The notes under the pieces: generated by a model
Seen by the model: only the letters and a program-made list of their open reading frames with translations
Databases searched by the model: none
What the model was told of the DNA's origin: nothing
Shown: positions 6,918 through 58,112 of the stretch, one piece after another
Numbering within the stretch: the first letter of the stretch is position 1
Layout: every line of letters starts with the position of its first letter
UHGV virus genome: UHGV-1962423
DNA: 64,000 nucleotides
Strand: one strand, 5' to 3'
DNA from: a virus
Translations under genes and position numbers: made by a program

Positions 6918-6958
6918 TTCAGATATATATTACTTAGGTGAGAGAATTACGTAATACT
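6918..6958 (+). promoter_or_regulatory. conserved promoter-like box TTCAGATATATATTACTTAGGTGAGA plus palindromic hairpin
   Basis: One of five near-identical AT-rich boxes in the window; hairpin core attacgtaat at 6946-6955; about 45 nt upstream of ATG 6991. Confidence 0.6.
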
Positions 6959-6990
6959 CATTTATCGTATACCTAATTAGGAGCTATATC

Positions 6991-7134
6991 ATGATTTCTG
7001 TAAAACACAAAAAAGCTATCTTCGCTGTTGTTATCGCTGTTGTTCTGGGTTGCCTGTACCTGGATATCGACAAAGGCTACGACACTTGCATCGACAACGG
7101 TAATTCCGTTGCGCAGTGCACTGGTCGTGGTTAA
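6991..7134 (+). CDS. small hydrophobic protein, possible lipoprotein (47 aa)
   Basis: Not in ORF track (short). TAGGAG RBS; MISVKHKKAIFAVVIAVVLGCLYLD... has a signal/TM segment with LGC lipobox-like motif; codons look highly expressed; strong terminator follows. Confidence 0.6.
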   Translation: MISVKHKKAIFAVVIAVVLGCLYLDIDKGYDTCIDNGNSVAQCTGRG

Positions 7135-7138
7135 TGTA

Positions 7139-7170
7139 TAAGGCACCTTCGGGTGCCCTTAATTTTTTTA
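7139..7170 (+). terminator. rho-independent terminator
   Basis: aggcacc-ttcg-ggtgcct followed by aattttttta. Confidence 0.7.
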
Positions 7171-7188
7171 TTAATTGGAGCATAAACG

Positions 7189-8004
7189 ATGATTACTATT
7201 AAAGATTATTTTCCGCGTGGGTTGAGCAATGAAAACTTCGTTCCAACTGAAGACATTGCCATCGTTGCAGAGTCCAGCGATAAGTCTTTTAAACTCTACT
7301 TGAGTACGGCAGCAGGAAAATCCACTCTTATCCTTCGTGAACCTGAAGTGATAAGCATCTGCTCGTTTGGGGGTGGTGTAGAAGGAACGATTAACTGGTT
7401 GAAATCCAGAATGCATCGTTTGCTTATCGTGAATACCGATCCTGTGATTCGTTTACAGCAATTGAAATCGTTGAATGAAATTATCGTCGGATTATTGGAA
7501 CATGAAACGTTTGGTAATGCTGAGATTGCGGAAGCGATTAAATCTGTAGAACTAATCGAGTGGAGCGATATCGAATACGAACGTGCTGGGTTATTCGCAA
7601 TGTACGGTGATGATAATCCCGTTGCGTTTGCACAAACGTTGGATAATGTTACCGTAACAGCGCGCGTATTGTTTGGTTTACAACGTGTTGAGTTTGAACT
7701 GAAACACGTCTACGTGAGCAATAAACCGGAGATGGTGGAGACATTGATTCGTGCTTTCGCATACCCGTTAGACGGTGAATGGGAACAGCAGATTAATGAA
7801 GCGTTAGAAGCCATGCATTTCCTGGCTGAAACGTTAAGGAAGGATGAGAAATTGAAAGGTCGTGTTTATCCAGAACACGATTTTGTTTGTGAAGAATGTG
7901 GAGCACAGTATCAAATCCGTGTTCCTTTAACCGGCCTAACATTCCCGCAAGCCAACGTGCAATGTAAGGAATGTGGTCATGTTCAATACGTAGCGATTAA
8001 ATAA
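7189..8004 (+). CDS. hypothetical protein with C-terminal zinc ribbon (271 aa)
   Basis: GGAG RBS; C-terminal CEECG...(21 aa)...CKECG pair of CxxC motifs. Confidence 0.75.
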   Translation: MITIKDYFPRGLSNENFVPTEDIAIVAESSDKSFKLYLSTAAGKSTLILREPEVISICSFGGGVEGTINWLKSRMHRLLIVNTDPVIRLQQLKSLNEIIVGLLEHETFGNAEIAEAIKSVELIEWSDIEYERAGLFAMYGDDNPVAFAQTLDNVTVTARVLFGLQRVEFELKHVYVSNKPEMVETLIRAFAYPLDGEWEQQINEALEAMHFLAETLRKDEKLKGRVYPEHDFVCEECGAQYQIRVPLTGLTFPQANVQCKECGHVQYVAIK

Positions 8005-8010
8005 AAGCAA

Positions 8011-8055
8011 CCCCTAATCCCGAAAAGGATTAGGGGTACACTTTATTTATTTTCG
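8011..8055 (+). terminator. rho-independent terminator
   Basis: cccctaatcc-cgaaaa-ggattagggg followed by T-rich tract. Confidence 0.7.
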
Positions 8056-8076
8056 CTCTTAAAAGGAAATTGTGTC

Positions 8077-8232
8077 ATGAGAAATGTTAATGCAATGCTT
8101 AACCAGGCATTTGTTAACCAACAGCGTTTTCAGGAACGCTTAGCACAACTTAAAACACAACACAGACCACCACAACAAAGAGTGGTTAAGAGCAAGTTCG
8201 GCGAAATGGTTTTCGAAAGAAAATCTTTCTAA
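8077..8232 (+). CDS. small protein, tandem paralog 1 (51 aa)
   Basis: Not in track. MRNVNAMLNQAFVNQQRFQERLAQ...FGEMVFERKSF; AAGGAAA RBS; own terminator downstream. Confidence 0.5.
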   Translation: MRNVNAMLNQAFVNQQRFQERLAQLKTQHRPPQQRVVKSKFGEMVFERKSF

Positions 8233-8240
8233 TAACCGTT

Positions 8241-8265
8241 AGGGGTGTGACAGCACCCCTTTTTA
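8241..8265 (+). terminator. rho-independent terminator
   Basis: aggggtg-tgacag-cacccct followed by ttttt. Confidence 0.65.
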
Positions 8266-8382
8266 CGCTTTAACTTTTCCAAAGAGAAGTTAAAGCAGTA
8301 AGGACTGTTGGCGCAGTCCTTACTTGTCATCGCTATTACAGAAACGTGATAGCACAATTCTAATTTTTAGAGGCGATCAGAA

Positions 8383-8550: not shown

Positions 8551-8556
8551 TAAAAA

Positions 8557-8955: not shown

Positions 8956-10518
8956 TCAAAAGAGTTCGTCACCCATACCGCCTGTAAAGACGTTAATCGA
9001 CGATGCAGTCACTGTTTCTTCTTTATCGCAATCCCATGGCAGAATGCCAACTTCACGGAAAGGTATTACTGTATAATGGTAAGCTTCTTTAGTATCGATA
9101 ATTGTACGGTGTTTACCACGTTGTACTTCTAAGTAACTATGCCCATTGACAACACGTTTGTTAAAATACATCTCACCGTCAGCTTCGTTATCCAAGCTGG
9201 AGCAGTTATCGTAAAGACCGCGACCTGGTAAGTTCTTACAGAAACTTGCTGGGTCTAACGCTTTTAATTTTTTGCCTTCTGGTGAGATTTGGTGTGGCGC
9301 TAACAAGAAACCACGGTTACGTACTACCTGGATGTTTCGAGCGATACGATAAATTTCTTTAATGTCGCTACCGGCAATCCCGTTACCGTGACCTGCTTTA
9401 CTGATAGTCCCGAAATAGTCTCCGCGAATCCCAGCTACATGATAACCTCGACGCTTTAAGTCCAGTATTAAGTCGTTTAAGTAATGTATTTTAAAATCTG
9501 AGTTTGTGTGTTTCTGAAAGATGTACTCCCAACCGTTAGCCCGCATTTTACTACAGAGGTAGTCCGACATTTTTGTGTTGTGTAAAGCTTTCTCTTCGTC
9601 GGTAGCGTTTTCAGAAGCAACCATAACCGGTGCTTCACCTTCAAAATGACCGTAGAGCGCTTGGTACGCATACGCCAAATTAACGTCCAGTTCGTTCTCT
9701 AAACTTAAATCGAGAATAACCGGCTGTAAATCCCCTTTAACGTTTTCCATTACCTTTTCAGGCGTATTGAATACCGGAATACTGATAGACAACAACAGAC
9801 TAAAAAGCGATTTACAGTTAAAGGGCAGTGCAGGCATTAGCCAAAGTTCTTCAGTAATCCCTTTGTTACAACCCAACATCTGGTTAATGGCTTTCCATCC
9901 GGTACGTAAACCATTACCCGCTGCTTTCTTACTGATTGAGTCGAACACATGTACGAACGGTGCACGGTTATCCGTAATAAGTTCACCTACGAGTGAGGGA
10001 ATCTTATTATGAGAGCGTTCACTGAACGTAGAGAGACTATCTCTGAGGTCGTTGAGCGCTGTTTGTAAATCAACGCGCGTTTCGGTTCCGTTCAGTGCGC
10101 CTAACGTACGACCTAATTTTTGTTTCAGTTGTACGCCTTGAATAGCTTGACGTAATTGGAAGTAGTATTGTGCTACTTGACGGTTAAGATGCTCGATGCG
10201 TGCTTCTGGTTCTTCTGGAATATCATCTTCCAGGAATTTGGTAATCGTATCGTATAGAGGACGTATTTGCGTAGTGGCCAGTTTCAAACGTTTCATGACG
10301 TTTGTGTGGTCGTAAGGCATACCGCCGTCTATGATGGATGTGATGATATCCTTGATTTCGACGAGGGCGGCACGTTCGTCACCTTCCTCTACGTAATCAG
10401 GAAGCTTAGCCTCTAACAGCACTTTTCTTATGACCTCGTGATCCTTCTCAGGGTCGGTCAGCAGACTTTCAGTGTATAGTGTGGCTAATGCGGTTATCAA
10501 CATCATTTTGTTATTCAT
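8956..10518 (-). CDS. hypothetical protein (520 aa)
   Basis: Long minus-strand ORF, one of only two reverse genes; AAGGATG RBS on minus strand; start lies 13 bp from the divergent + gene start. Confidence 0.75.
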   Translation of the reverse strand: MNNKMMLITALATLYTESLLTDPEKDHEVIRKVLLEAKLPDYVEEGDERAALVEIKDIITSIIDGGMPYDHTNVMKRLKLATTQIRPLYDTITKFLEDDIPEEPEARIEHLNRQVAQYYFQLRQAIQGVQLKQKLGRTLGALNGTETRVDLQTALNDLRDSLSTFSERSHNKIPSLVGELITDNRAPFVHVFDSISKKAAGNGLRTGWKAINQMLGCNKGITEELWLMPALPFNCKSLFSLLLSISIPVFNTPEKVMENVKGDLQPVILDLSLENELDVNLAYAYQALYGHFEGEAPVMVASENATDEEKALHNTKMSDYLCSKMRANGWEYIFQKHTNSDFKIHYLNDLILDLKRRGYHVAGIRGDYFGTISKAGHGNGIAGSDIKEIYRIARNIQVVRNRGFLLAPHQISPEGKKLKALDPASFCKNLPGRGLYDNCSSLDNEADGEMYFNKRVVNGHSYLEVQRGKHRTIIDTKEAYHYTVIPFREVGILPWDCDKEETVTASSINVFTGGMGDELF

Positions 10519-11068: not shown

Positions 11069-13354
11069 ATGAAAGATACCCGAATCTCTAATTTAGAGAA
11101 ACTCGTAGAAGCCGGTACTAGTCTGGCCCAAAACGTCATCGGCAACAACACCGCCAGCGAAATGTGGAAGACGATTGTTGCAGGCGAGTCCGTACGTAGC
11201 AACGCAAAAGTATTTGGCGCTCTGCGTGACGAAGCATCACAGCACTATGCCAACGCTTTTGGCGGCAAGAAAATGTCTCATGCTGCGACCGTCGCTTCCG
11301 CAATGATTCTGGGCGTAGCTAACCACGGTAAAGACCTGCAAGAACGTGTTGCCCAGGAATACGCTAAGCCGGAATTCCACACCAAGTATAACCTGGATAT
11401 TGGTATCCCTGGTGCGCAAGGTGGTGATTGGGGTCGTGAGCGTATGGTTGTTGCTCAGGAATACTACAGCAACAAAGACTACGACAAAAACTTGGGCCTG
11501 ACCTGGACCCTGAACGTACGTGCTCTGGAAACTCAGTCCAAGTTTGCTGAAACACTGTTCCCGACCATTACCGTTGACACCAACGATGTTGGTATTACCG
11601 TACGTACTAAAGTGACTACCGTTTCTCGCGGTATCATGAACGCGCTGCTGAGCAAAGACGTCGTTGAAGATCATCGTCGTCCGCTGCACAACGCACTGAC
11701 TGACCACACCGTTCTCCAGGACGAAGCGATCAACATCGTTCCTTACGTAATGGAAACCGGTGAAAACCAGGAATACTTCGTAAGCGAAGATCTGGTTCCG
11801 AACGAAAAAGTTCGCCTGGGTCGTGTACCTCCGTATCCGACTAACTACCTGAGCTTTGCAAACGACACGCTGAACCTGTTCCAGCTGTCTGCGCATCCGG
11901 GTATCGTTCAGGAAGGTTACGATGAAACTGATGAAATCGCACCGGGTTGTGCTCTGGGCAGCCTGCTGATTTCTGTACGTAAACCGGCCGAAGAAGCGAA
12001 AGCGGGTAAATTCATCAAACTGCACGTTCGTGACATGCAGTTCGCAACCTTCCAGCGTCCTGCTGAAGGTGACGGCCGTGAACTGGTTCTGCAATTCCGT
12101 CGTACCGCGTTCTCTCTGAATGCGAAAACCACTGACTGGAAAGGCGACGCTATTCCGGCACTGCAAGCACTGGGCCAGAACTCCTACACCCTGCGCTACG
12201 TTATCACCATCACCATGTCCCTGTTCACCAGCGGCCAGTTCGGTGGTAAAGTAGACATTTCCGGCCACAAACTGGAAATCGAAGGTCTGTACGATGCAAC
12301 TGGTAACAAAGTTGATACCAAGTCTGGTACCGGCAAAGTTATCCTGGATGGCCTGAAACTCGAACTGATGGGCTGGCGCTTCGATGGTACTCGTACCAAC
12401 GAAAACCGTCGTACCCAGGGTCTGCTGCTTGACCCAATTTGGGAACAGGAAAACTACAAACTGCAATACGGTTCTCCGATTCTGACCAAGTCTCCGGTTG
12501 GTGTTGAATACGACGACACTGAACGTCTGGATGACCTGATCTCTGCGGTGAACATCCGTAACGAACAGCTGGCTATTACTCAGACGCTGTCTTACACTGA
12601 AGCAGTACGTAACGCAGCCGCTGCGATGATCACTCCGTGGGACAAACCGGCTATCCGTGGTCTGGGCCGTCACTGGGTTGCTCCGTGGTTCAAAGAGTCT
12701 GACTACAAAGTCGATGAAGTTGTTCAGTCTCTGGATACCAAAGAAGCGCTGATCAACGCTCGTCAGGGTCTGTTGCAGCGTATCGGTAGCCAGGTAACTC
12801 AGGCTATCCAGGATTCTCGTTTCATTCCTGCACTGCGCCTGCTGACCGCTGATCCGGACATTCTTCCGAAAGTTATTATCGCAACTGACGAACCGACTGC
12901 ATCCATGCTGCTGCTGGTTCAGGGCGACCAACGTCTGCTGGGCGACCGTTATGAATACGAAGTCGTTACCACCAACGATGACCGCTGGCGTATCTACAAC
13001 GCAGCTGACGATTCCTGGACTCGTCGTCTGCAATGGTTCCTGAAAGTTCCGACTGCGGACGATGGTTCCTACTGCGTACTGAACTGGGGTAACCACTTCT
13101 GGTCTCCGATCATGGTTACCAACATCAACATTCAGCGTAACGGTTCTACTTCTAAAGAACTGGCTGTACAGCCGCGTAACGCGCATATCTGCCACTGCCC
13201 GATCACTGGTCTGATTTGGGTTAAAGGCATCACCAAACTGGTTGAAGAAAAACTGGCTTACAACGTTTCTGTAGAACAGAACGGCCAGAAACAAACCGAA
13301 GGTGGTGTAGCAGGTAACCTTGCTGTCGAAGGCAAAGCTACCGCTGGTAAATAA
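11069..13354 (+). CDS. highly expressed major virion structural protein, possibly major capsid protein (761 aa)
   Basis: Strongest codon bias in the window (CTG, CGT, GGT, AAC, GAA), strong terminator downstream. Capsid assignment is inference from size and expression signature only. Confidence 0.85.
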   Translation: MKDTRISNLEKLVEAGTSLAQNVIGNNTASEMWKTIVAGESVRSNAKVFGALRDEASQHYANAFGGKKMSHAATVASAMILGVANHGKDLQERVAQEYAKPEFHTKYNLDIGIPGAQGGDWGRERMVVAQEYYSNKDYDKNLGLTWTLNVRALETQSKFAETLFPTITVDTNDVGITVRTKVTTVSRGIMNALLSKDVVEDHRRPLHNALTDHTVLQDEAINIVPYVMETGENQEYFVSEDLVPNEKVRLGRVPPYPTNYLSFANDTLNLFQLSAHPGIVQEGYDETDEIAPGCALGSLLISVRKPAEEAKAGKFIKLHVRDMQFATFQRPAEGDGRELVLQFRRTAFSLNAKTTDWKGDAIPALQALGQNSYTLRYVITITMSLFTSGQFGGKVDISGHKLEIEGLYDATGNKVDTKSGTGKVILDGLKLELMGWRFDGTRTNENRRTQGLLLDPIWEQENYKLQYGSPILTKSPVGVEYDDTERLDDLISAVNIRNEQLAITQTLSYTEAVRNAAAAMITPWDKPAIRGLGRHWVAPWFKESDYKVDEVVQSLDTKEALINARQGLLQRIGSQVTQAIQDSRFIPALRLLTADPDILPKVIIATDEPTASMLLLVQGDQRLLGDRYEYEVVTTNDDRWRIYNAADDSWTRRLQWFLKVPTADDGSYCVLNWGNHFWSPIMVTNINIQRNGSTSKELAVQPRNAHICHCPITGLIWVKGITKLVEEKLAYNVSVEQNGQKQTEGGVAGNLAVEGKATAGK

Positions 13355-13368: not shown

Positions 13369-13410
13369 TGTCTAAGCCCCAAAAGGGCTTAGACCTTTTA
13401 TTTTTTTCTT
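13369..13410 (+). terminator. strong rho-independent terminator
   Basis: tctaagccc-caaaa-gggcttaga followed by ttttatttttttc. Confidence 0.8.
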
Positions 13411-13535
13411 TCTATTATTTTTCGGATAGATATTATTAAAGAGAGACTGTCAGTTGGTTTAAAGGAGAGTTTATGGAAAAATTACAGTTAAAACTAAAGA
13501 TATGTACCATTATTAAAACTTAATCTGGCCCTTAC

Positions 13536-14546
13536 ATGAACCGTCTTGATATTGATGTGGTACCCAGTGTTACTGACCGCTCGTTGTATCAAAAGTCAGG
13601 ACTACAAAAACTCATCACTTTTGAGAATAATACTGGTGTGCCAATTTACGTCACTGAAACCAGTGGCGGTAGCTTTATTTTAACTCCGTCCAAAAGCACG
13701 GCTGATGAGCATGGGGTTGTTGTTTATGTAACGTATCAATCGTTCGGAAATCTGGCTAACCTGAACGGGTTTGCAGAAGTCTTACCAGAAAAACAATTCA
13801 CTAAATTTTGTGCAGATTTAAAGGAGAAAGGAGAGGTCACACTCCGATACGTCGTCGACGATATCGGTGCTTTATTACGTGGGGACTTGGTTGTATTGAA
13901 GCAGTTAGGATTTGCATTTTCAATTACACCAGTTCGATTAGAAAGTACACCACCGAGTGTAAGGCCAGGAGGTGAGAGAACTGAATTTACATTGGGTGTT
14001 ATTGTTGTGCAGCGTTACGACGATCCCGAATTATATCGTTGGATTAGATTCTACGGAACGCGCATGGAAGTACAACCGATTCTATCGCGGTATTACGAAC
14101 CGGGTGTGTACATGGTAATAGGAGGAGGAGACAAAGTAGAAGGGAGCAGGATGATTCACTTTGAGTTCGATGACTTATTGTCACCGTTCCGTGTTTTTAA
14201 AGATAAAGAAACAGCCACTGCGTTTCGATGGCAAGAAACGTTACCGGATATTCACGAGATAAAGGAAAAGCTGGAAAGTCAATACAGAGAAAAATTAGAA
14301 AGTTTGGATTCGGCAAAAGACAAACTGGAATTAGAACACAAAAAACAACTACAGAATTTGGCTTTAGAAAAGGAGCGTTTGACTCTAGCGTATAAACAAC
14401 AAGAACTAGAAGCAAAGTCTCGGGCAGAGGCACGAAAAGAATTCTACGAGACTCGTTCTTACATTCGTAAAGATGGGTCAGACCTATTTAAATCAGTCCC
14501 TGCGTATCTGGCGGCGGGTGTCGCATTTATAGGGATGCTAAAGTAA
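13536..14546 (+). CDS. hypothetical protein with C-terminal coiled-coil and hydrophobic tail (336 aa)
   Basis: Heptad-like KLESQYREKLESLDSAKDKLELEHKKQLQNLALEKERL region; preceded by a 16-codon uORF with strong SD. Confidence 0.75.
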   Translation: MNRLDIDVVPSVTDRSLYQKSGLQKLITFENNTGVPIYVTETSGGSFILTPSKSTADEHGVVVYVTYQSFGNLANLNGFAEVLPEKQFTKFCADLKEKGEVTLRYVVDDIGALLRGDLVVLKQLGFAFSITPVRLESTPPSVRPGGERTEFTLGVIVVQRYDDPELYRWIRFYGTRMEVQPILSRYYEPGVYMVIGGGDKVEGSRMIHFEFDDLLSPFRVFKDKETATAFRWQETLPDIHEIKEKLESQYREKLESLDSAKDKLELEHKKQLQNLALEKERLTLAYKQQELEAKSRAEARKEFYETRSYIRKDGSDLFKSVPAYLAAGVAFIGMLK

Positions 14547-14556: not shown

Positions 14557-16332
14557 GTGTTTAAAGATGCAATCAGAAAGCTTAAAGAGGATGGCAAAAT
14601 AGTACCCTTTAACCGAGCGATTGCGGAAGGTGTCGGTTATACCCAGGCCAAAGATGGTATACACGAACGTGTTCAGATTATCTTGAAACGTGAGCTGGAT
14701 TATCATCCTGTTGATAATCCGCGTGTTCCTGAAGGGCTGGCTGTATTAGGTGTACGGTTAATGTCGCCGTTTGAAACGTTCATCTATAAGCTGTCTCGTT
14801 CTGAGAGCAGCAGAATGGATAGACGCCGTGGTGTGATGTCCATTGCGAACACCGATGCGTATATGGTCATGTCAACATTCCGTATTCCAGGAGATTCTCG
14901 ACCGATCTCAAGACCGATTAACTTACCCTTTATCCGTCGTGGTGGTTTAATGAACTATTACGGTACGACGTATCACGTTGCGCCGGTTATTCACCAGCCA
15001 GGTATCTGTCGCGAACACGGTGGGGTATTTGTTAACTTTGACTTTAAACGTAAAGCCTCGTTGAAATTCTGTAAGCAACCTGTCCGTGTGTTAGTCAACG
15101 GTAAAAAAGAGGAGCTATTCTTACCAGGAACCAAAAACCTGTTCAAAGCGAAGAACGCAACACATCCCGATACTGACGAGAAACCGTTAATGTATTGGTT
15201 GTTCGGACGTTACGGATTTAAAGAAGCGATTAAACGCTATACTGGTGTTGACGTAGAAATTTATCCATCGTTTAAGATCCCAGAACTCGATCTCAACGAG
15301 AAAGTTGTAATCAGTTCCGGTGAATCGAAATATAACCGTTCGATAATGTACGCGGTTGTCGTACCCGCAGAAGCATTGCCGAACGTGGATAAAGTCGGTT
15401 GGGATCAAAACGAGCATTTATTGCTGGCTGCAATTGCTGCGTTCTTCAAAGCTGCTCACTACTATTGCAGTAAACAATCTATTAAGAACGGTAACGTCAC
15501 ACCGCTGCCGCCGCTGTTTACCGCAATTAACGAGTTAGCGATGGAAGACGATATTGCTAATCTGAACTCTGCTCCGATTTGGCGTGAGATTCTGGGAAGA
15601 AGTATCGTAGGACTGAAACCTTCCGATATTGAGTTAGCGCACAGTATGGCGAAACACTATACTGAATGTGATCGCTATGTTAACTCAACGTTCCGTGCAG
15701 AACTGAAGATGACCGATCCCGACATTCCAGACGATATGGATATGTTTGATTTCTTCTGGTATGCAACGAAACTGATGGTACGTACCCGTTTGACCAAACA
15801 GGGCGACATTCCGTCGATGTACGGAAAACGTTTAACCGTAACTGACTACTTACTGTTAGGTGACCGTGGGTTTACACCAACGGTAGCGGCTATTCGTTTC
15901 CAGCTGGGACAAACGGAGAACCGTTCGCCGGAATCCTGCGCGAATATGATTCGTAGCGCACTCAATAAAGAAATTGTCACGAGTCTGGTACTGCGTAATA
16001 TCACCGGTAATGGCGGTGTAAGTTATTTTAACGCATCAACAGAATCCATGGTGTTAGGAGTATCCACACACGCGATCAGTCAAACTGAAACGGAATCTAA
16101 ACGCAACAGCAAGGGCGGTAAAACGGTTAACCTTAACGACCGTACGAAACACGCTTCTGCATCGCATCTGGAGTGTGGTAACGTTTATTATATTCCGAAA
16201 TCATCCCCGTTCAAATGGGGTGTCCTTAACCCGTATATGAAAACTAACCGTCAGTTAGTGATGGTTCGTAATCCAAAACTTGACGAGTTAATTCAAGCAA
16301 CTGAAGAAGACATTGCGAAGATTGGCCGTTAA
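14557..16332 (+). CDS. hypothetical protein (591 aa), GTG start
   Basis: GTG at 14557 with AAGGAG 6 nt upstream. Confidence 0.8.
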   Translation: MFKDAIRKLKEDGKIVPFNRAIAEGVGYTQAKDGIHERVQIILKRELDYHPVDNPRVPEGLAVLGVRLMSPFETFIYKLSRSESSRMDRRRGVMSIANTDAYMVMSTFRIPGDSRPISRPINLPFIRRGGLMNYYGTTYHVAPVIHQPGICREHGGVFVNFDFKRKASLKFCKQPVRVLVNGKKEELFLPGTKNLFKAKNATHPDTDEKPLMYWLFGRYGFKEAIKRYTGVDVEIYPSFKIPELDLNEKVVISSGESKYNRSIMYAVVVPAEALPNVDKVGWDQNEHLLLAAIAAFFKAAHYYCSKQSIKNGNVTPLPPLFTAINELAMEDDIANLNSAPIWREILGRSIVGLKPSDIELAHSMAKHYTECDRYVNSTFRAELKMTDPDIPDDMDMFDFFWYATKLMVRTRLTKQGDIPSMYGKRLTVTDYLLLGDRGFTPTVAAIRFQLGQTENRSPESCANMIRSALNKEIVTSLVLRNITGNGGVSYFNASTESMVLGVSTHAISQTETESKRNSKGGKTVNLNDRTKHASASHLECGNVYYIPKSSPFKWGVLNPYMKTNRQLVMVRNPKLDELIQATEEDIAKIGR

Positions 16333-16371: not shown

Positions 16372-17982
16372 ATGGCAAGCTACAGCGAAACTCGTGAATT
16401 TATCTTGAAAGTTGTAATGGCTAAACAGGATCAGCTGTTGAACTATCTCGTCGATGCGATGAATGCGAAAGGGATAAAAGAAGATCCGTTTGTTAATGCA
16501 GCGTGCATTGTAGGTAACTGGTATCTGCAAAACCGTCGTCCTAACGACCAGACTAACGTTGCGGTTATCGAAACCTTTAAGGCAACGCTGTATAGCCGTC
16601 TGTTAGGTTTAGGCCTGACGCCGTTGCAGCCGGACATTCATAGCGCGTTAGAGAAAGCGTTTGTGCTGGCGAATCAACTTGCAGAAGAAGCTCGTCGTGC
16701 CGGGCAGGGTGGATTCGGTGTACGTACTGAACCAGTTAACTTCGGTATTCAGAATTCACAGAATGCGCAACCAACCGCACCGATTCAGGGTTCTTCTGTA
16801 CCAATGGCCAGCTATACTCCGGCAGGTGTAACAGTGCAACCTGTACAACCCGCTCCGGTATTCGGCGGTACTCCGCAACCTCAACCTCAGCCGCAATCGC
16901 AGCCTGCTATTATTCAGCCGGCTGTTCCGCAGGAAGTGATGAACAAAAGCAAGCCTGTGGATATGAATAAGGAAACGATGGATGATATCATTCAACGTGC
17001 TAACCGTCCTCACCATGACATTTTGCGGGTAGAAATTGTGGAAGACTATTTAGATCACGAGCTGAAAGAAAAGATTCAGCAAAACGTTGTTTCGCCGAAA
17101 GAAGCTAACACACGCGTCAAGAATTCTGTGTATGCAGAACATCGTGACTGGGGTGATAAGGTTAGTGAACTGGTTGAAGATAACGACAAACAATATTGCT
17201 CGTATGACGATGCGGGTATCATGGTGAAAGTCGAAAGCGAATATCGTCTGTATCCGATGGCACAGACTGAAACTTCTGCGGTGTATCTCCAGGAGTTTTA
17301 TAGTTCGGTTCGCCAGATTATCGACGATCTCGATACCGTACGTGATATTGACGATATTGAAAAGCTGATGGAGCGTGTTTCTAATGACGTCTTCAGACTG
17401 CGTGACCTTGCACAACGTTTGTTAATGTACTTCCTCACCAAATCTGATGAGAATGAAACGTATCGTAGCGAATGTTCAATGTTTACTCGTCGTTTCGTTG
17501 CAACATTAACCGTGCTGGTTCACAACGCTATCTCCGTGGCATCTGCTTACGGTAAAGACGTTCCGGGTACGAAATTCGTACAATTGGAATGCTGCCTGGA
17601 TGACATGACCTACTTTAAAGAGACAGTGTATGGTCGTACCATCGGTGAAAACGGCGTGAGCAAGTCTGCGGATTATTTCCGTGAAATGTTCCTGCTAATC
17701 GCACGTTCTCTGCGTAAGCTGCACATTCGTCTGACCTGCGATAATAAAGCCATTGAACTGTCTCAGGTAACGTACACGATTTCTCTGCAAGCAGATTATC
17801 AATCCGCTAACGATCGTCATATCGTGGAAATCTCTTCGTTTGGTAATAGCTTCGAACCGATTGTTTCAATCTACGAAGTCATTAACCAGAAAGCACCAGA
17901 AGCGTTCATTAAACTTAAGACCCCGTCTCACGTTTATTCGCTACTGAGCACAGGTGACGTTACTGCACCGGTTCGTTATTAA
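16372..17982 (+). CDS. hypothetical protein with Pro/Gln-rich linker (536 aa)
   Basis: TTAGGAG RBS; low-complexity QPVQPAPVFGGTPQPQPQPQSQPAIIQPAVPQ segment at about 16800-16930. Confidence 0.8.
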   Translation: MASYSETREFILKVVMAKQDQLLNYLVDAMNAKGIKEDPFVNAACIVGNWYLQNRRPNDQTNVAVIETFKATLYSRLLGLGLTPLQPDIHSALEKAFVLANQLAEEARRAGQGGFGVRTEPVNFGIQNSQNAQPTAPIQGSSVPMASYTPAGVTVQPVQPAPVFGGTPQPQPQPQSQPAIIQPAVPQEVMNKSKPVDMNKETMDDIIQRANRPHHDILRVEIVEDYLDHELKEKIQQNVVSPKEANTRVKNSVYAEHRDWGDKVSELVEDNDKQYCSYDDAGIMVKVESEYRLYPMAQTETSAVYLQEFYSSVRQIIDDLDTVRDIDDIEKLMERVSNDVFRLRDLAQRLLMYFLTKSDENETYRSECSMFTRRFVATLTVLVHNAISVASAYGKDVPGTKFVQLECCLDDMTYFKETVYGRTIGENGVSKSADYFREMFLLIARSLRKLHIRLTCDNKAIELSQVTYTISLQADYQSANDRHIVEISSFGNSFEPIVSIYEVINQKAPEAFIKLKTPSHVYSLLSTGDVTAPVRY

Positions 17983-21446: not shown

Positions 21447-21457
21447 TGGGGTCTCCG

Positions 21458-44892: not shown

Positions 44893-47800
44893 ATGGCTAA
44901 AGCGGTAAAGAAAATTCGTTTACACGATTTACGTCCATACACCGGTGATATCGGTGAAGGCGTTTTACTTTTCTCCAAGGATGAGAAAGATTATAAGTTA
45001 CCAGTCCGTGAGGTTATTGCAGATATTGACACCGTACGTAATGCGGTGGCTGATGCACAAACAGCAGCAGCACAATCACAAGAAGCTGCAACTCAGGCTA
45101 CGCAAGCAAAAGTTTTAGCAGAAGCAGCAAAACAACAAACTGACACAGTTGCGGCAACGGTTGCACAACAAGCGCAAACCGTAACCGAAAAAGCAACAGA
45201 AGTCAGTACAAAACATACCGAAGTGTTAGCCGCGAAAACGGCGGTAGACGCTCAGGCTGTGTCCATTAATGAGAAAGCACAAGCGGTAGCGACAAGTGAG
45301 GCAAACGTCACACAAGCAGAAACTACCGTTACGAAGAAAGCAGAAACTGTTGCCACACAAGCCGGGCGGGTCGAACAGTCACTTACGGCAGTTAACGAAG
45401 CTGTTGCGTCGGTAGAGTCGTCGAAAGCTGCCGTAGAAGCTAAAGCAACACAAGTTACTTCAGACAAAGAAACCGCAGAGAATGCGGCAACTCGTTCTGA
45501 GGCAGCCGCTAAGCGTGCGGAAGAAATCGTTGCTCAAGGTACTGTTGATGCAACAACGACCAGTAAAGGTGTCGTTAAACTTAATAATACCTTAACCAGT
45601 GACTCTGTTACTGAAGCGGCTACACCGTCAACGGTTAAGCAGTTAAATGATGAATTGCAGTTAAAAGCAAACCGTCACAACCCAACTTTTACCGGTGTGG
45701 TAAAAGCACCGACTCCTGCTTCGGATTCTAACGACACGAGCGTCTCAACGACTGCATGGGTACGGCAAGCGATTGCTGAATTAGTGGACTCTTCACCCGA
45801 GACGTTAGATACGTTATCAGAAATTGCAGCCGCGTTAGGAAACGATCCTAACTTTGCGACAACGATAACGAACCAACTAGCGGGTAAACAGCCGTTAAGT
45901 CCGTTACTGACAGCGATTGCCGCAGTCACCACCGCTGCAAACAAACTCCCTTACTTTACCGGTAGTAATCAGGTAGGGTTAGCGGATTTCACCTCGACTG
46001 CTCGCGAATTATTAGCGAAAGGGTCGACGGCCGATATCATCAGCTTCCTGGGGTTGAAAACCACCGTTGATAAAGCTGCGGGCGCTATGCAACGTAGTTC
46101 TAACGGTGCCGATATTCCCGATAAAGCCACCTTCGCGAAGAACATCGGGTTGTCAGCAGAGACGTACCTGAAGTTTAATGGGGAGATGCCAGTAGATGCA
46201 GACATCAACACCTTCGGCCCGGTTGAAGCGTTTATGGGCGTTTGGTCTAAAGCCACGTCTACGAACGCAACAGTTGCAAAGAATTTTCCAGAAGAAAACG
46301 CAGTTGGTTGTTTAGAAGTTTTCAAAGCGGGTAACTACAGCGGAAGTCAACGTTTTACTGTACGTAACGGTAACATCTATACACGTCATCTTACTGCTGC
46401 ATGGAATGGGACAAACGGTCCTTGGTCAGAATGGCGTAATGTTGCTGGTTCCGCCAGAACGTTGAACGAACAAAATAATCTGAATGACTTGGGTGGTGAG
46501 GCCGCACTAGGTGTTTGGAGAAACAGTTCGAGTACATTAGCAACAACCGCGCTGAATTATCCTGAAGAAGGCTCTTTTGCCCAGGGCGTATTAGAAGTTC
46601 TCAAAGGTGGCAACTATAGTTACACACAACGCTACACTACCCGCAGAGGCAATGTATACGTTCGTTGTCTACAAGCCACGTGGGACGCTTCAAACCCGCA
46701 ATGGGAAGAATGGCGCTGTGTTGGTCATCAATCTGTCAGCACATATTTCGAAGGCGATCTCGACACGTTAACTTCGCCTAACCGTTATAGCATTACTGAT
46801 AAAGCGACAAACGTTCCTTTAATCGACGGTACTAAAATTATCGGTATCTTGGACGTCAGTCGTCGTTTTGATAACATTAGTGTCGAACAAAAATTCACCT
46901 CGTTTGGTTCTGGGAGCAAAACTACAGGGCGTATTTTCACACGTGTATTCTCCGGTCAATCAAACGGTAAATGGAGTGAGTGGCGAGAGGTTTTCACCTC
47001 GTATTCACTTCCGTTAGTTTTAGGTATCGGTGGGGTTGCAGCTAAGGTTGACCCGTTAGACTGGCAAACCTACGACTTCGTTCCTGGACAGATGTTAACG
47101 ACGCCGTTGAACACCATGAAAAACATTCCTGCAGGAATGGATTGGGGTACTATTGACGGTAACTTAGTTAACATCCTTGTAGGGCCGTCTGACGACACCG
47201 GTACTGGTCGGAGTATGCTGGTTTGGCGTAGCACAGTGTCTGTTGCTAACTATCGCTTCTTTGCGGTACGTATCGCTGGTGAGAAGGGTAGTCGTACGAT
47301 TACGCCGCGTCAGATGCCTGTGTTGAACGCAGCGCACACCTGGTCAGAGAAACAAACGTTCTCTAAAGGTTTAGCGGGTGAATTAACCGGTAATGCTTCT
47401 TCAGCAACGAAACTTCAAACAGCCCGTTTAATCGGCGGCGTAAGTTTCGACGGCACCAAGGACATTGCACTCCCTGGCGTTAACGCACAAGGTACGCAGA
47501 ACACCACTGGGAATGCGGCTACCGCAACCAAATTACAAACGGCTAGAAATATCAACGGTGTGAAATTCGATGGCTCTGGAGACATCAATATCAACACCTT
47601 AGTAGGTCGTGGACGTGTCACTGCTCTGGCTGGATCAAACAAAGGTACACCTGGTATCCAGATGTACGAGGTTTACAATAACGGTTATCCGACCGCGTAT
47701 GGTAATTTACTGCATTTAGGTGGTGCTACTGCCGTAGGTGAAGGTGAACTACTGATCGGTTGGTCTGGTACCAGTGGCGCACACGCACCTGTTTATATCC

Positions 47801-49209
47801 GTAGTCGTCGAGACACTACAGATGCGCCGTGGTCAGAATGGGCGCAAGTTTATACTGCACGAGACAGCATTCCGGGTGTCAACACCACAGGTAATCAGGA
47901 TACGACCGGAAACGCAGCTACCGCTACAAAACTTAAAACCACACGTAAAATAGGCGGGGTTAATTTTGACGGAACGGGTGATATTAACCTACCAGGTGTA
48001 AACCAGCAGGGCAACCAGAACACAACAGGTAACGCTGCGACAGCGACTAAACTCCAGACTGCCCGAAATATTGGTGGTGTGGCTTTCGATGGTACTAAAG
48101 ACATCAGTTTACCTGGGGTAAACCAAACAGGGAATCAGTCAACTACGGGGAACGCTGCTACTGCAACGAAGTTGCAGACAGCAAGAAGTATCAACAACGT
48201 ACCATTCGATGGTTCGAAAGATATTACTCTAACGCCAAGTAATATCGGTGCGGCTGCCTCCTCAATGACTTGGTTAAATACCGGGGATAATGGTGCAGCG
48301 CTTAGTACAGATTCTTTTATTACTTTGTTGCAAAATAACGGGGCTTTTAATTCCAGAACTTGGATAGCCCGATGCTCTTGGGCGTATGCTCAAAATGGCG
48401 TGATTCCAGATAGTGAAACAAAGTGCGGTACTATTCCACTTGCAGGCTCAGTTATTGAAGTTGTAAGTTTTGGGATGACCAACTACACCATTCGTATCAC
48501 AACCCCTACGACGACATCGGTTAGCGGAGCAAAAACCAACTCTGAGTTTATTTATTGCTATAATGGTAAAGATTATTCTCCAGGTTGGCGACGGCAGTAT
48601 AACACTGTTAATAAACCGTCTGCTAGTGACGTTGGCGCTCTACCAACTGGTGGCGGTACTGTCAGTGGCGATTTGACGGTTAATGGTAAACTGGTTACGA
48701 AAAATGCCGATTTTCGAATTGCTTACGGTAGTTACGGTTTCATTTTACGTAACGATGGCAATAGCACCTATTTCTTAGTAACAGCATCTGGTCAAGCTGC
48801 AACGGGTTCCTGGAATAACTTACGACCGATGTATTTTAGCAACTCTACCGGTCAAGTAACCTTCGGGCACAACGTTACTGGTAACGGGAACGGTTCGTTT
48901 AACGACGTACAGATTCGTTCTGACCGTCGTAACAAACGTAATCTGGTGAAACTGGATAATGCATTAGACCGTTTAGAACTCCTTACCGGGTATCTGTACG
49001 AAGTTCAACATCCTGACGATGGATGGAATACTTCGGTAGGCTTAATTGCCCAGGATGCATTAGTTGCGTTACCTGAATTGGTTACTGAAGACGATGACGC
49101 TATTTCTGGTGAAAAACGTTTACGTTTGAACTATAATGGTGTTATTGCGTTGTTGGTAGAGGGCATTAAAGACCTTCGTCGTGAGCTTAAGGAACTCAAG
49201 GGGAAATAA
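44893..49209 (+). CDS. long tail fibre protein with C-terminal intramolecular chaperone domain (1438 aa)
   Basis: N-terminal anchor shared with 50934 gene; Ala/Thr/Gln-rich coiled-coil; tandem TGNAATATKLQTAR.IGGV.FDGTKDI.LPGVN repeats like T4 gp12/gp34/gp37 fibre repeats; C-terminus SDRRNKRNLVKLDNALDRLELLTGYLYEV...GLIAQDALVALPELV matches the self-cleaving chaperone of endosialidase/L-shaped fibre proteins. Confidence 0.85.
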   Translation: MAKAVKKIRLHDLRPYTGDIGEGVLLFSKDEKDYKLPVREVIADIDTVRNAVADAQTAAAQSQEAATQATQAKVLAEAAKQQTDTVAATVAQQAQTVTEKATEVSTKHTEVLAAKTAVDAQAVSINEKAQAVATSEANVTQAETTVTKKAETVATQAGRVEQSLTAVNEAVASVESSKAAVEAKATQVTSDKETAENAATRSEAAAKRAEEIVAQGTVDATTTSKGVVKLNNTLTSDSVTEAATPSTVKQLNDELQLKANRHNPTFTGVVKAPTPASDSNDTSVSTTAWVRQAIAELVDSSPETLDTLSEIAAALGNDPNFATTITNQLAGKQPLSPLLTAIAAVTTAANKLPYFTGSNQVGLADFTSTARELLAKGSTADIISFLGLKTTVDKAAGAMQRSSNGADIPDKATFAKNIGLSAETYLKFNGEMPVDADINTFGPVEAFMGVWSKATSTNATVAKNFPEENAVGCLEVFKAGNYSGSQRFTVRNGNIYTRHLTAAWNGTNGPWSEWRNVAGSARTLNEQNNLNDLGGEAALGVWRNSSSTLATTALNYPEEGSFAQGVLEVLKGGNYSYTQRYTTRRGNVYVRCLQATWDASNPQWEEWRCVGHQSVSTYFEGDLDTLTSPNRYSITDKATNVPLIDGTKIIGILDVSRRFDNISVEQKFTSFGSGSKTTGRIFTRVFSGQSNGKWSEWREVFTSYSLPLVLGIGGVAAKVDPLDWQTYDFVPGQMLTTPLNTMKNIPAGMDWGTIDGNLVNILVGPSDDTGTGRSMLVWRSTVSVANYRFFAVRIAGEKGSRTITPRQMPVLNAAHTWSEKQTFSKGLAGELTGNASSATKLQTARLIGGVSFDGTKDIALPGVNAQGTQNTTGNAATATKLQTARNINGVKFDGSGDININTLVGRGRVTALAGSNKGTPGIQMYEVYNNGYPTAYGNLLHLGGATAVGEGELLIGWSGTSGAHAPVYIRSRRDTTDAPWSEWAQVYTARDSIPGVNTTGNQDTTGNAATATKLKTTRKIGGVNFDGTGDINLPGVNQQGNQNTTGNAATATKLQTARNIGGVAFDGTKDISLPGVNQTGNQSTTGNAATATKLQTARSINNVPFDGSKDITLTPSNIGAAASSMTWLNTGDNGAALSTDSFITLLQNNGAFNSRTWIARCSWAYAQNGVIPDSETKCGTIPLAGSVIEVVSFGMTNYTIRITTPTTTSVSGAKTNSEFIYCYNGKDYSPGWRRQYNTVNKPSASDVGALPTGGGTVSGDLTVNGKLVTKNADFRIAYGSYGFILRNDGNSTYFLVTASGQAATGSWNNLRPMYFSNSTGQVTFGHNVTGNGNGSFNDVQIRSDRRNKRNLVKLDNALDRLELLTGYLYEVQHPDDGWNTSVGLIAQDALVALPELVTEDDDAISGEKRLRLNYNGVIALLVEGIKDLRRELKELKGK
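47385..48240 (+). repeat. tandem in-frame coding repeats of the fibre motif
   Basis: At least five copies of the ~25-50 aa unit; nucleotide copies differ at synonymous positions. Confidence 0.7.
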
Positions 49210-53636: not shown

Positions 53637-53640
53637 CACG

Positions 53641-53683
53641 GTAGCAGGGGCTAAGCCCCTGCTACCTTTTTCTTTATTTTTTC
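53641..53683 (+). terminator. rho-independent terminator
   Basis: gtagcagggg-ctaa-gcccctgctac followed by ctttttctttatttttt. Confidence 0.8.
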
Positions 53684-53728
53684 TCAGATATATATTACCT
53701 AGAGGAGAGTGAAATTTACATTCACTCC
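53683..53728 (+). promoter_or_regulatory. conserved promoter-like box CTCAGATATATATTACCTAGAGGAGAG plus hairpin
   Basis: Box plus hairpin gagtgaa-atttaca-ttcactc; about 30 nt upstream of ATG 53757. Confidence 0.6.
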
Positions 53729-55887: not shown

Positions 55888-55967
55888 GCCGAAGATCATT
55901 TCCGTAAGTATTAAACAGGGGGATTTACGTCCCCTCAACACAGAGCAAACCCCTAAAGGAGCATTAA

Positions 55968-56483
55968 ATGTCAGTAAATATTAACATGAATCTTTATACT
56001 AAACGTGAACGTCAGATTCTGGCGAATCAACCCGGTGTTACGACTATTGACGGTAAACCCATTGACCGTTTAAAAGTTATCGTTGCGCGAAATTGCCATG
56101 AACGCGATTGGGACATTACCTACTTCCGTTGTTGTTCGGTCGCAAACGCGCTTACCCAACTCTCCAACTACCACCCAGGGCCGTTATTAAAAGACTGGGT
56201 TTGGTTAGTACCCAAAACACCTTCGGCGATTGAATACCCCTCAGGGTTGGTTTATATCCGTCCTGTTGCTTATCCAGAACGTCTGAAAGAGTATCTTGAA
56301 GTTATCTGGAACCGTCCTCGTAAAGAGCTGGTGACGATCATTAATTTACTGCAACAGATCGATATCCCCGGAGTTTTGAATTTGAAACTCACGTCTCGCG
56401 ATATTAACCAGGCTTACTGGGAACTAGAGTGGACAGAACCGAAATTCGAAAACACTAACCGTATTTTCTTGCACCGGGGGTAA
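55968..56483 (+). CDS. hypothetical protein (171 aa)
   Basis: AAAGGAG RBS. Confidence 0.75.
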   Translation: MSVNINMNLYTKRERQILANQPGVTTIDGKPIDRLKVIVARNCHERDWDITYFRCCSVANALTQLSNYHPGPLLKDWVWLVPKTPSAIEYPSGLVYIRPVAYPERLKEYLEVIWNRPRKELVTIINLLQQIDIPGVLNLKLTSRDINQAYWELEWTEPKFENTNRIFLHRG

Positions 56484-56485
56484 AA

Positions 56486-56767
56486 ATGTTAAATTGGTTG
56501 TTGGGTTTAATTAACTCACGTCAACAGGAGCTTTATAAAGAAAACACACGATTACGGCAGGAACTTAATAACAATCGTCAGACCAAACGACAATTAATTC
56601 GGATGGTAAAACAACAGGCGCGTTGTATACGGGATATCGATTATCAGTATCACCGTCTGAATACCTTAGACCCAACAACAAAAGCTTTAGGTAGTACGAT
56701 TGGACACGCACGTAAAGTCAGTCACGATGCGTTAGTTCGAATCGATACAATAGAAGAGAAACTGTGA
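56486..56767 (+). CDS. hypothetical basic coiled-coil protein (93 aa)
   Basis: Followed by hairpin ctccctcgg-tttt-ccgagggag. Confidence 0.65.
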   Translation: MLNWLLGLINSRQQELYKENTRLRQELNNNRQTKRQLIRMVKQQARCIRDIDYQYHRLNTLDPTTKALGSTIGHARKVSHDALVRIDTIEEKL

Positions 56768-56810
56768 TTAGCACTCCCTCGGTTTTCCCGAGGGAGATAA
56801 GGTGTTTTGC

Positions 56811-57200
56811 ATGAAGCGTTTATCTTACTTAAAAAGACGTTTGTTACTAAAGGTCCAATTATTCATCAATGGGAAAGTTAAAAACTGGCTATGTGGTGAA
56901 AGGGTACAACGTATCGTCAGTGAGGGCGACTGGTATACGGAAATCGTGGTTTCCCCAAATGGCGAGCTTATAAACGTTACCATTCGTGACGTTTTGGTTA
57001 AGATTGGCAGGGAAGGTGGTTTGCTGTTTGAATCGGAAACTACAAAAGTCGTTGCTAAACAATTGAAAGAAGGTCGGATTATATTCAACGTTGCTGCCCA
57101 AAAATACTACGACAATTTATTCGAATGTCAACGAGCAATAGGCAGAATGACTCGTGAGATGCGAAGAATGCACATCACGGAGATCACTATAGGAGTTTAA
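56811..57200 (+). CDS. hypothetical protein (129 aa)
   Basis: Track start GTG 56802; ATG 56811 with AAGGTG 6 nt upstream. Confidence 0.65.
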   Translation: MKRLSYLKRRLLLKVQLFINGKVKNWLCGERVQRIVSEGDWYTEIVVSPNGELINVTIRDVLVKIGREGGLLFESETTKVVAKQLKEGRIIFNVAAQKYYDNLFECQRAIGRMTREMRRMHITEITIGV

Positions 57201-57202
57201 CG

Positions 57203-57511
57203 ATGGAAAATAAAATCGCAAACACAACGGCACCTGAGAACATCGTCAACTATATTCTCAGTGGCGGGTTATTAGAAGACAACAAAGAAACGTGCGATAA
57301 ACTCGTTTCACAACTACTGCCTATTCGTTCAGAATACTGCGAAATCGTTATCTTAGGTTCTGAGTATTGCGTACGTTCTTACTGTCGTCGTTTCGAAGCC
57401 TTACGCGTTCCACGTACGTTAGGTGGCGTGATACTCTTAGTCTCTAACTTTCACAGTGCACACGTTCGTGTTGCAACCTGGATTGCAAACGGTGGCGATA
57501 ATGGTTTTTAA
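57203..57511 (+). CDS. hypothetical protein (102 aa)
   Basis: GGAG RBS; ORF starts 2 nt after upstream stop. Confidence 0.7.
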   Translation: MENKIANTTAPENIVNYILSGGLLEDNKETCDKLVSQLLPIRSEYCEIVILGSEYCVRSYCRRFEALRVPRTLGGVILLVSNFHSAHVRVATWIANGGDNGF

Positions 57512-57612
57512 TTTATTTAAACGTAAGGAATGTCCTGTCTGCGAAACCTGCGAAAAAAATTATCTCTACGCAAGATGAGCTAATCAAACAGCAAGATAAG
57601 TTGCTCACTGAA

Positions 57613-57789
57613 ATGGGCGAACTCTATTTTAAACTTTGTGCTATTACCGAACTGGTTAGTGAAGGTGTGTTAACGAAAGACGGTGGATTAGAGTTGGTCA
57701 AGAAGGCAACGATTCACTGTCGTCCTGAAGTAGAAAAATATAAACTTGAAGTGAAACGTGAAATGTGGGAGATTATTAATGAAGCGTGA
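57613..57789 (+). CDS. hypothetical small protein (58 aa)
   Basis: Frame open from 57502; first ATG at 57613, weak RBS; start uncertain (TTG 57601 in track). Confidence 0.4.
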   Translation: MGELYFKLCAITELVSEGVLTKDGGLELVKKATIHCRPEVEKYKLEVKREMWEIINEA

Positions 57790-58060
57790 AACAGTTGTAT
57801 TTCGTAGTAATGGTGATGTGGTTTTGTATCGTGGTAAGAAACGTATTCGTACGTTAGAATACCGTGAAGCAAAACGTTTTGTTGAAGAGTGTGCATGGTT
57901 AATGCATTACGAAGGGAACTATCGTGCTATCTTAGAAGCTCCGCGTTTAGAACGTGCGGTTGCACAGATGGCAATAGGTAATCCTAAGAACTGTTACCTG
58001 GCCCGTAAGCCAAAATACTTACAGCGTCTTTCGTTAGGCAGCTTTATTGCTGGATTTTAA
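57779..58060 (+). CDS. hypothetical protein (93 aa)
   Basis: ATG 57779 with GGGAG 8 nt upstream; track start GTG 57758. Confidence 0.6.
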   Translation: MKRETVVFRSNGDVVLYRGKKRIRTLEYREAKRFVEECAWLMHYEGNYRAILEAPRLERAVAQMAIGNPKNCYLARKPKYLQRLSLGSFIAGF

Positions 58061-58070
58061 TAAAAATAAT

Positions 58071-58112
58071 TTCAGATATATATTACCTAGGTGAGAGTTC
58101 AGTTACTCTCAC
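58071..58112 (+). promoter_or_regulatory. conserved promoter-like box TTCAGATATATATTACCTAGGTGAGAG plus hairpin
   Basis: Hairpin gtgagagt-tcagtt-actctcac; about 30 nt upstream of ATG 58143. Confidence 0.6.

Follow-up and report, generated by a model that had tools for sequence, protein, structure and literature searches.

A 64,000-nucleotide stretch of the UHGV virus genome UHGV-1962423 (hereafter the window) carries a set of near-identical 25-nt AT-rich boxes, each lying shortly upstream of a plus-strand gene, which very probably belong to the known class of early promoters of phiKZ-like jumbo phages, because both the published consensus sequences and the phage lineage match. At three of these boxes, and at many related promoters in other phage contigs, the predicted transcript opens with an inverted repeat that begins within the first bases and could fold into a stem-loop. 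The reading that we favour, and that we regard as fairly probable when taken as a whole, is that the boxes are early promoters of a virion RNA polymerase (RNAP) and that the resulting transcripts carry a 5′-terminal stem-loop that would protect early mRNA.

To establish how often the box occurs, we searched the window for TCAGATATATATTACCTWRGTGAGA with up to three mismatches, which yielded exactly four hits, all on the plus strand, at 6919 (one mismatch), 33796 (none), 53684 (two) and 58072 (none); 100 dinucleotide shuffles yielded no hit at this threshold. These four are the near-identical boxes described in the original prediction, where their coordinates are one lower through inclusion of an optional leading T, and the degenerate copy listed there at 38834 is likewise present, with four mismatches. 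A scan with up to seven mismatches added one further convincing site, a sixth, variant copy. We refer to the boxes as P1 (6919-6943, TCAGATATATATTACTTAGGTGAGA), P2 (33796-33820), P3 (53684-53708), P4 (58072-58096) and P5 (the degenerate copy, 38834-38858, TAAGATATATTTCATCTATGTGAGA), together with the variant at 13422-13446 (TCGGATAGATATTATTAAAGAGAGA). All six are on the plus strand, intergenic and co-oriented with the next gene, 30-53 nt ahead of a start codon. Counted from the end of the box, the four strong copies have 46-49 nt before the start codon, against 31 nt at the degenerate copy and 26 nt at the sixth, and the predicted 5′ untranslated region (5′UTR) of the strong copies is 50-53 nt long; the placement of the five listed copies upstream of plus-strand start codons (31-49 nt from the box end) thus holds as described. 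The accompanying statement that the boxes usually follow a terminator stands in part: terminators clearly precede the boxes at 33796 and 53684, as well as the variant at 13422, and do not precede those at 6919 or 58072. While ATATATATTAC is found exactly in four copies, short cores such as ATATATATTAC with two mismatches or ATATTAYNNNNGTG with one are no commoner in the window than expected by chance, and the informative signal is therefore the long box rather than AT-richness. The flanks upstream of the boxes are rich in T and A (aaaatattt, taattttttc, ttattttttc, aaaaataatt).

Judged from its genes, the window is from a phiKZ-like jumbo phage related to SPN3US and phiEaH2. Its major capsid open reading frame (ORF; 11069-13354, 761 aa) matches the Pfam family PhiKZ_MCP at 5e-207 and is about 80% identical to that of Erwinia phages phiEaH2 and Asesino and 78% identical to that of Salmonella phage SPN3US, and the ORF at 14557-16332 (+) encodes a homologue of the phiKZ non-virion RNA polymerase (nvRNAP) subunit PHIKZ123 (PDB 7OGP_E, E 9.7e-18; phrog_2943, annotated 'polymerase'). 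The window is also syntenic with, and 81-96% identical to, the uncultivated IMG/VR jumbo contigs 3300045988_095954, 3300045988_078609, 3300045988_113438 and 3300029126_000001. When a 7-kb query covering 33-40 kb, the only stretch used for this comparison, was searched by megablast against known phages, no near-identical deposited phage genome was found; the sole match was a 66-bp segment comprising terminator and box (window 33759-33824), which is present in two SPN3US-like Salmonella phages.

Phages of this lineage have a described class of early promoters, the hallmark of which is an AT-rich element, some 10 nt long and highly conserved (TATATTAC / ATATATTAT), with its centre near -10. Predicted consensuses have been published for phiKZ (TATATTAC), 201phi2-1 (...TTTRARR-BTATATTACDWHDGTG), OBP (...TTTYARRYAKATATTATYWWADTG) and N1M2 (...TTTCARRYAKATATTATYWAAGTGWA) (PMC7058600), and the window box with its flank, TTTCAGATATATATTACCTAGGTGAGA, fits all four almost position for position, the phiKZ core TATATTAC being contained in it exactly. 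In phiKZ, a T/A-rich stretch upstream of about -19 has been described as well. According to a review, every RNAP-encoding jumbo phage has such a motif ahead of its presumed early operons, with its centre some 10 bp before the start, and the virion RNAP must be what reads it (PMC7598289); in a study of 201phi2-1 the motif was found at the same distance from the start, and both differential RNA sequencing and ONT-cappable-seq of phiKZ and 201phi2-1 agree with this. The boxes of the window are thus presumably read by an RNAP of this kind, injected with the virion. The original prediction had proposed a phage-specific promoter class for a phage-encoded RNAP, which the phiKZ-like identity and the consensus match now support, yet it had stated that no published consensus could be matched, which is wrong, since those of phiKZ, OBP, N1M2, 201phi2-1 and AR9 fit. 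Beyond the window, the 17-mer TCAGATATATATTACYT occurs exactly in many related phage contigs, SPN3US and phiEaH2 among them, usually with GTGAGA directly downstream. Of 77 related promoters, 72 lead into a Shine-Dalgarno sequence (SD), a start codon and an ORF, the median predicted 5′UTR being 51 nt, and in the annotated relative SPAsTU the box sites are intergenic.

The start site was placed from statements in the AR9 paper and in reviews. The AR9 early promoter is given as AAATATATATTAT-(6N)-G+1, and in phiKZ and phiR1-37 the conserved start likewise lies 6 nt past the element (PMC5312081). Aligned with AR9 AAATATATATTAT, the window sequence AGATATATATTAC is identical at 11 of 13 positions, which puts +1 at box position 22, the second G of GTGAGA. 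The predicted starts are G6940 for P1, G33817 for P2, G53705 for P3, G58093 for P4, G38855 for P5 and G13443 for the variant, with a G at this position in all six copies. In phiKZ, the first 50 kb of which were compared, there are seven TATATTAC-N6-G sites, and the G is present in all seven.

From these predicted starts, three of the leaders fold into hairpins. That of P2, GAGAUUAC-ACA-GUAAUCUC, has a stem of 8 bp and runs from +1 (33817-33835, +), the leader having a folding energy of -10.3 kcal/mol and a z-score against shuffled sequences of -2.28. At P3 the hairpin (53705-53728, +; 7-8 bp; z -2.40) has the core GAGUGAA-AUUUACA-UUCACUC (53707-53727) and is closed by G53705-C53728, and at P4 it is a 6-bp GAGAGU-UCAGUU-ACUCUC (58093-58110, +; z -2.87), which in DNA forms part of an 8-bp palindrome, GTGAGAGT/ACTCTCAC, spanning 58091-58112. 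In each of these three the stem begins within about 0-2 nt of the predicted +1. The P1 leader holds a loop-less palindrome, ATTACGTAAT (6946-6955), which does not begin near +1 and is not a significant RNA hairpin (leader z +1.03); the palindrome at P5, GTGAGAATTCTCAC (38853-38866), does pair from +1, with only 3 bp of it inside the predicted transcript (z -0.53); and the leader of the variant box at 13422, with no stem near +1, folds no better than shuffles (z -0.9). All five inverted repeats that had been pointed out are literally present, and as RNA hairpins three are robust (33796, 53684, 58072) and two weak (6919, 38834).

To ask whether this arrangement recurs, we scanned IMG/VR for TCAGATATATATTACYT, which returned 97 loci, many of them on contigs of 205-246 kb, and assembled from the related contigs and the window a set of 79 non-redundant promoters with GA at +1/+2. 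When positions +1 to +40 were folded, the first paired base was +1 in 46 of the 79 and lay between +1 and +3 in 62. An uninterrupted stem of at least 6 bp beginning at +1 to +3 was found in 57% of the set, against 9% (maximum 19%) in shuffles that keep the GAGA, corresponding to an excess of about six-fold at this length and thirteen-fold for stems of at least 7 bp. With one representative for each of 28 clusters, the stem frequency was 39%, compared with 7.7% under the shuffle null and with 13.5% (maximum 36%) under a swapped-arm null in which the first 9 nt were exchanged between families. Scanned position by position, stem 5′ ends show a jump at +1, and 23 of the 38 distinct hairpins closed by G+1 end exactly at +1; a segment 45 nt further downstream gives no excess, with a mean z of +0.39 versus -1.55 for the leader. 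The arms themselves vary widely, as in GAGAUUAC/GUAAUCUC, GAGAGUUAA/UUAACUCU, GAAUGAC/GUUAUUC, GAUAGA/UCUAUC and GAGCAUUGA/UCAAUGCU, the loops measure 3-11 nt, with 6-11 nt common, and between the window P3 (GAGTGAA/TTCACTC) and its orthologue L068 (GAGCGAA/TTCGCTC) there is a compensatory change from U-A to C-G. Taken together, the hairpin is probably a selected RNA structure. Neither a +1 hairpin on early transcripts nor the exact box sequence was found in the literature searched, the scope of which did not extend to the original phiKZ and OBP papers, and the hairpin may be noted elsewhere; it is a modest addition to the known promoter class.

The hairpin is common in the SPN3US-like clade, less so in OBP-like phages and occasional elsewhere. 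Of 34 non-redundant sites that match the OBP/N1M2-type consensus in a variety of jumbo contigs, 15 pair from +1 or +2 (mean z -1.4); in phiKZ, two of the seven sampled sites have a +1 hairpin, one of them ahead of PHIKZ054, the gene for the nuclear shell. Promoters of this class can therefore do without the hairpin. Two further scans did not contribute: matches listed for the AR9 consensus in viral contigs were scattered, mostly one per contig, many of them on small contigs unlikely to be phiKZ-like, and were not used, and the 201phi2-1 consensus gave seven loci only, too few for analysis. As a separate feature of the leaders, about 12 SPN3US/phiEaH2-like promoters carry the motif (C)TAATCGAC(C/T)AT after the hairpin, around positions +25 to +30 of the predicted RNA (loci L001, L004, L011, L015, L032, L034, L056 and L060, for example); it does not occur as such in the leaders of the window.

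In the mechanism that we propose, a multisubunit RNAP that the virion carries and injects along with the DNA would recognise ATATATATTAC, located at about -18 to -8 and downstream of a stretch rich in A and T, so that the box would serve as the site at which the virion polymerase binds and melts the DNA. Initiation would take place at the G seven bases after the C, giving transcripts that start 5′-GAGA. Each box would head an operon of small genes, most of which have no known function, and the 13422 variant the operon with the nvRNAP subunit. In this clade, the first 18-24 nt of the transcript would in most cases form a stem-loop that begins right at the 5′ end, its 5′ arm consisting of the constrained initially transcribed GAGA and a few more bases and its 3′ arm having evolved to match. 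This stem-loop may then shield the early mRNA from 5′-end-dependent decay, in enterobacterial hosts by RppH and RNase E, at a stage when no phage protein has yet been synthesised, with the Shine-Dalgarno sequence, about 25 nt beyond it, remaining free. A role in mRNA stabilisation, suggested by analogy, is a tentative assignment that we would put at somewhat less than even; it is favoured because early mRNAs precede any protective factor made by the phage.

As to the level at which the repeat acts, RNA is most likely, because the repeat begins at the first transcribed base and keeps its pairing with its sequence left free, and because loops of 6-11 nt disfavour a cruciform and the half-sites are too varied for one sequence-specific protein. 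It is improbable that the repeat works in DNA, be it as the operator of a dimeric regulator that shuts off the early promoters or as an extruded promoter hairpin like that of N4. The perfect loop-less palindromes ATTACGTAAT and GTGAGAATTCTCAC would suit such a role, as would the complementarity that sometimes reaches upstream of +1, the weakness of the asymmetry between G.T and A.C pairs and the helix-turn-helix (HTH) protein encoded by the first gene after P2, but the repeat is situated downstream of the start, most stems go no further than +1, and the half-sites, GAGA excepted, change from promoter to promoter, so that a single protein of this kind could not read them all. Of the leader hairpin and the operator between which the original prediction had left the choice, the former is thus preferred, given its start at the predicted +1 and its conserved structure. 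An RNA hairpin might instead act during transcription, where the nascent fold behind the virion polymerase would aid escape or the stripping of RNA, or where, together with a U run, it would pause or attenuate transcription and give short 5′ RNAs; this is unlikely. The stem does begin at +1, 22 of 38 distinct hairpins have a T directly behind the 3′ arm, TTTT follows the stem in many relatives, premature termination in the 5′UTR leading to short RNAs has been reported for phiKZ and 201phi2-1, and a scan flagged 53707-53727 as terminator-like. Most of the sampled phiKZ early promoters, however, which use the same kind of polymerase, have no hairpin, so that the polymerase needs none, and the stems are weak (about -6 to -9 kcal/mol) and rich in A and U. 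The three good hairpins of the window are A/U-rich too and are followed by CTTAC, CATTAG or ACTTAA rather than by a U run; none combines the G+C-rich stem and the U run of an intrinsic terminator or attenuator, and 53707-53727, the only one flagged, was flagged weakly.

Two other explanations dispense with a functional hairpin or with the virion polymerase. That the boxes are promoters followed by functionless inverted repeats, with pairing arising by chance between the fixed purine-rich GAGA and a T-rich leader, agrees with the two of five window copies that fold no better than chance and with the 24% of GAGA-keeping shuffles that still form stems of at least 5 bp; the excess over shuffles nevertheless survives both the clustering and the swapped-arm null, is confined to +1 and is accompanied by a compensatory change between orthologues, which leaves this explanation quite improbable. 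Less probable still is an ordinary host sigma-70 promoter made up of the -10-like TATATT and, upstream of it, a UP-like region rich in A and T. Five of the six positions of TATATT agree with the -10 consensus and its distance to the predicted start is sigma-70-like, but the aligned flanks hold no conserved -35, and 25 positions are conserved, among them TCAG, C15 and GTGAGA, which mean nothing to sigma-70. A promoter scan scored 58057-58084 at 9/12, which is its minimum score, and of the two boxes in the stretch scanned it thereby picked up P4 only and missed P3. The motif is, moreover, conserved in phages of Pseudomonas, Salmonella, Erwinia and Klebsiella, phiKZ infection is rifampicin-resistant, and a near-identical core is found in Bacillus phage AR9, the early transcription of which is independent of new protein synthesis (PMC5312081).

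Several points weigh against a virion-RNAP early promoter with a protective 5′ stem-loop. Three of the six copies, those at 6919 and 38834 and the variant at 13422, are without a convincing hairpin, and the start site, the early timing and the use of the virion polymerase are all predictions made by homology. No virion RNAP gene was found among the roughly 30 window ORFs scanned against family or structure databases; SPN3US has been reported to carry such genes. Many of the related promoters are orthologous, so the counts are not independent, and clustering shrinks the excess while keeping it. The comparison meant to separate an RNA-level from a DNA-level structure is marginal, with 41 G.T against 28 A.C pairs and a minimum free energy of the sense strand that is lower in 49 cases and higher in 28 (p 0.047). 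In about one third of the promoters, the complementarity can be continued past +1 on the upstream side, as far as -5 or -6 and for the most part with G.T pairs (TTAGGTGAGAG...CTCTCACTTAA; window 58088-58115). This is not explained by an RNA that starts at +1; it could reflect chance pairing due to a 3′ flank rich in T, a different start site or a fold formed in read-through RNA. Finally, the T runs that follow the stem in many relatives leave room for a role in pausing or attenuation. A more far-reaching variant of the protective stem-loop, which we consider a long shot, is that in SPN3US-like phages the +1 stem-loop is a structural tag on the transcripts of the virion polymerase, the functional second half of an early module rather than a generic stabiliser, with the GATAGATATTAT boxes, such as that ahead of the nvRNAP operon, as a separately tuned subclass. 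Such a tag might serve release or export from the early-infection vesicle, hand-over to ribosomes, or the hiding of 5′ ends from host decay and RNA-sensing defences.

The variant box at 13422-13446, whose assignment comes from the motif scan and from orthologues in the loci L041 and L044, belongs to this GATAGATATTAT subclass, in which the core has G for T and TTAT for TTAC (window 13425-13436). The same core recurs intergenically in related jumbo contigs, with a terminator before it and an SD and ATG after it (loci L011, L017, L032, L034, L038, L041, L044, L056, L009, L029, L063 and others), and these boxes may be a weaker or differently timed class of promoter. In the window, the variant box follows an intrinsic-terminator-like hairpin with a T run, GTCTAAGCCC/GGGCTTAGAC (13370-13394, +), read from the sequence after the capsid gene. 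Downstream of the box lie, in order, a micro-ORF of 16 aa (MEKLQLKLKICTIIKT; 13473-13523, +) with a strong SD (AAAGGAGAG), the ORF at 13536-14546 and the nvRNAP gene. The second of these has no obvious SD of its own and begins 13 nt past the stop of the micro-ORF, the start and SD of which are kept in the orthologous loci L041 and L044; the micro-ORF may be a leader peptide or provide translational coupling ahead of the nvRNAP operon. Two further ORFs were considered as RNAP subunits and rejected, the one at 16372-17982 having matched no solved structure and the one at 21446-23641 being a PHIKZ128-like virion protein.

Around the remaining boxes, the first gene after P1 (6991-7134, +) encodes a 47-aa protein with a hydrophobic stretch (phrog_8574). 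P2 is preceded by a terminator hairpin with a T-rich tail, CCCCTACC-TTCG-GGTAGGGG (33760-33779, +), read from the sequence, and is followed by the gene of the 119-aa HTH DNA-binding protein (33870-34229, +; phrog_7126, 8.7e-33). P5 is followed by a gene for 89 aa (38890-39159, +; phrog_12339). Upstream of P3 a terminator scan found a strong intrinsic terminator of 12 bp, nine of them G-C (53640-53666, +), and the first genes after P3 (53757-54608, +; 283 aa) and after P4 (58143-58637, +; 164 aa) encode proteins with no family match. Elsewhere, the minus-strand ORF at 8956-10518 encodes a divergent DnaB-like ATPase (Pfam divDNAB, 4.9e-126), flanked by plus-strand gene blocks and lying just upstream of the capsid gene, and the 685-aa ORF at 11237-13294 (-), antisense to the major capsid gene, is almost certainly a shadow ORF rather than a true gene. 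A 1438-aa tail-fibre-like protein is encoded at 44893-49209 (+), with Phage_fiber_2 repeats, a trimerisation domain of the T4 gp34 type and a C-terminal Peptidase_S74 chaperone domain. In the whole 64-kb window, no Rfam family reached its gathering score and a tRNA scan found no tRNA gene.

If the boxes are early promoters, the operons of this uncultivated phage beginning at 6991, 33870, 38890, 53757 and 58143 can be annotated as predicted early genes, and probably also that beginning at 13473, which includes the nvRNAP gene; early genes are the most likely actors in host takeover. The rigid 25-nt box of the SPN3US clade, with its defined +1, would make good in vitro templates for the phiKZ-like virion RNAP, which is biochemically little characterised, and the clade-specific +1 hairpin offers a simple hypothesis for how early mRNA survives before a phage protective protein is made. 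Promoter and leader together could serve as a compact part for engineering jumbo phages of Enterobacterales.

Compared with known systems, the boxes are closest to the early promoters of phiKZ, AR9 and phiR1-37, with which they share the AT-rich core, the G placed 7 nt after the core, the T/A-rich upstream region, the phage lineage and the intergenic position at the head of operons of small genes of unknown function; the SPN3US-type box differs in being longer and more rigid and in usually being joined to a +1 hairpin, which is absent at most sampled phiKZ sites. The promoters of OBP and N1M2, which were predicted by motif search only and for which no hairpin was reported, have a consensus (TTTCARRYAKATATTATYWAAGTGWA) that the window TTTCAGATATATATTACCTAGGTGAGA follows nearly position for position, the window core ending in C, as in phiKZ, rather than in T, and the 13422 variant, GATAGATATTAT, fits their form with K = G and TTAT. 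The early promoters read by the virion RNAP of phage N4 likewise combine an injected polymerase with an inverted repeat, but there the hairpin lies upstream of the start, has a conserved sequence with 5-7 bp and a loop of 3 nt, and a single-subunit polymerase recognises it in the DNA. In the present case the repeat lies downstream of +1, its sequence is variable, its loops are of 3-11 nt and the lineage has multisubunit polymerases, and we therefore rejected a hairpin promoter of the N4 type. The putative function of the hairpin is most reminiscent of E. coli ompA hp1 and of the leader of T7 gene 10 (GGGAGACC...GGUUUCCC), which exemplify the classical block to RppH and to 5′-end-dependent entry of RNase E by a stem at the very 5′ end. 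As in these, a short stem-loop flush with the 5′ triphosphate is defined by structure and lies well upstream of the ribosome-binding site, and the T7 leader is also made by a phage polymerase, as predicted here. The hairpins described in this work are, by comparison, A/U-rich and weaker, their stabilising effect is a prediction, and they form a family spread over many promoters of one class.

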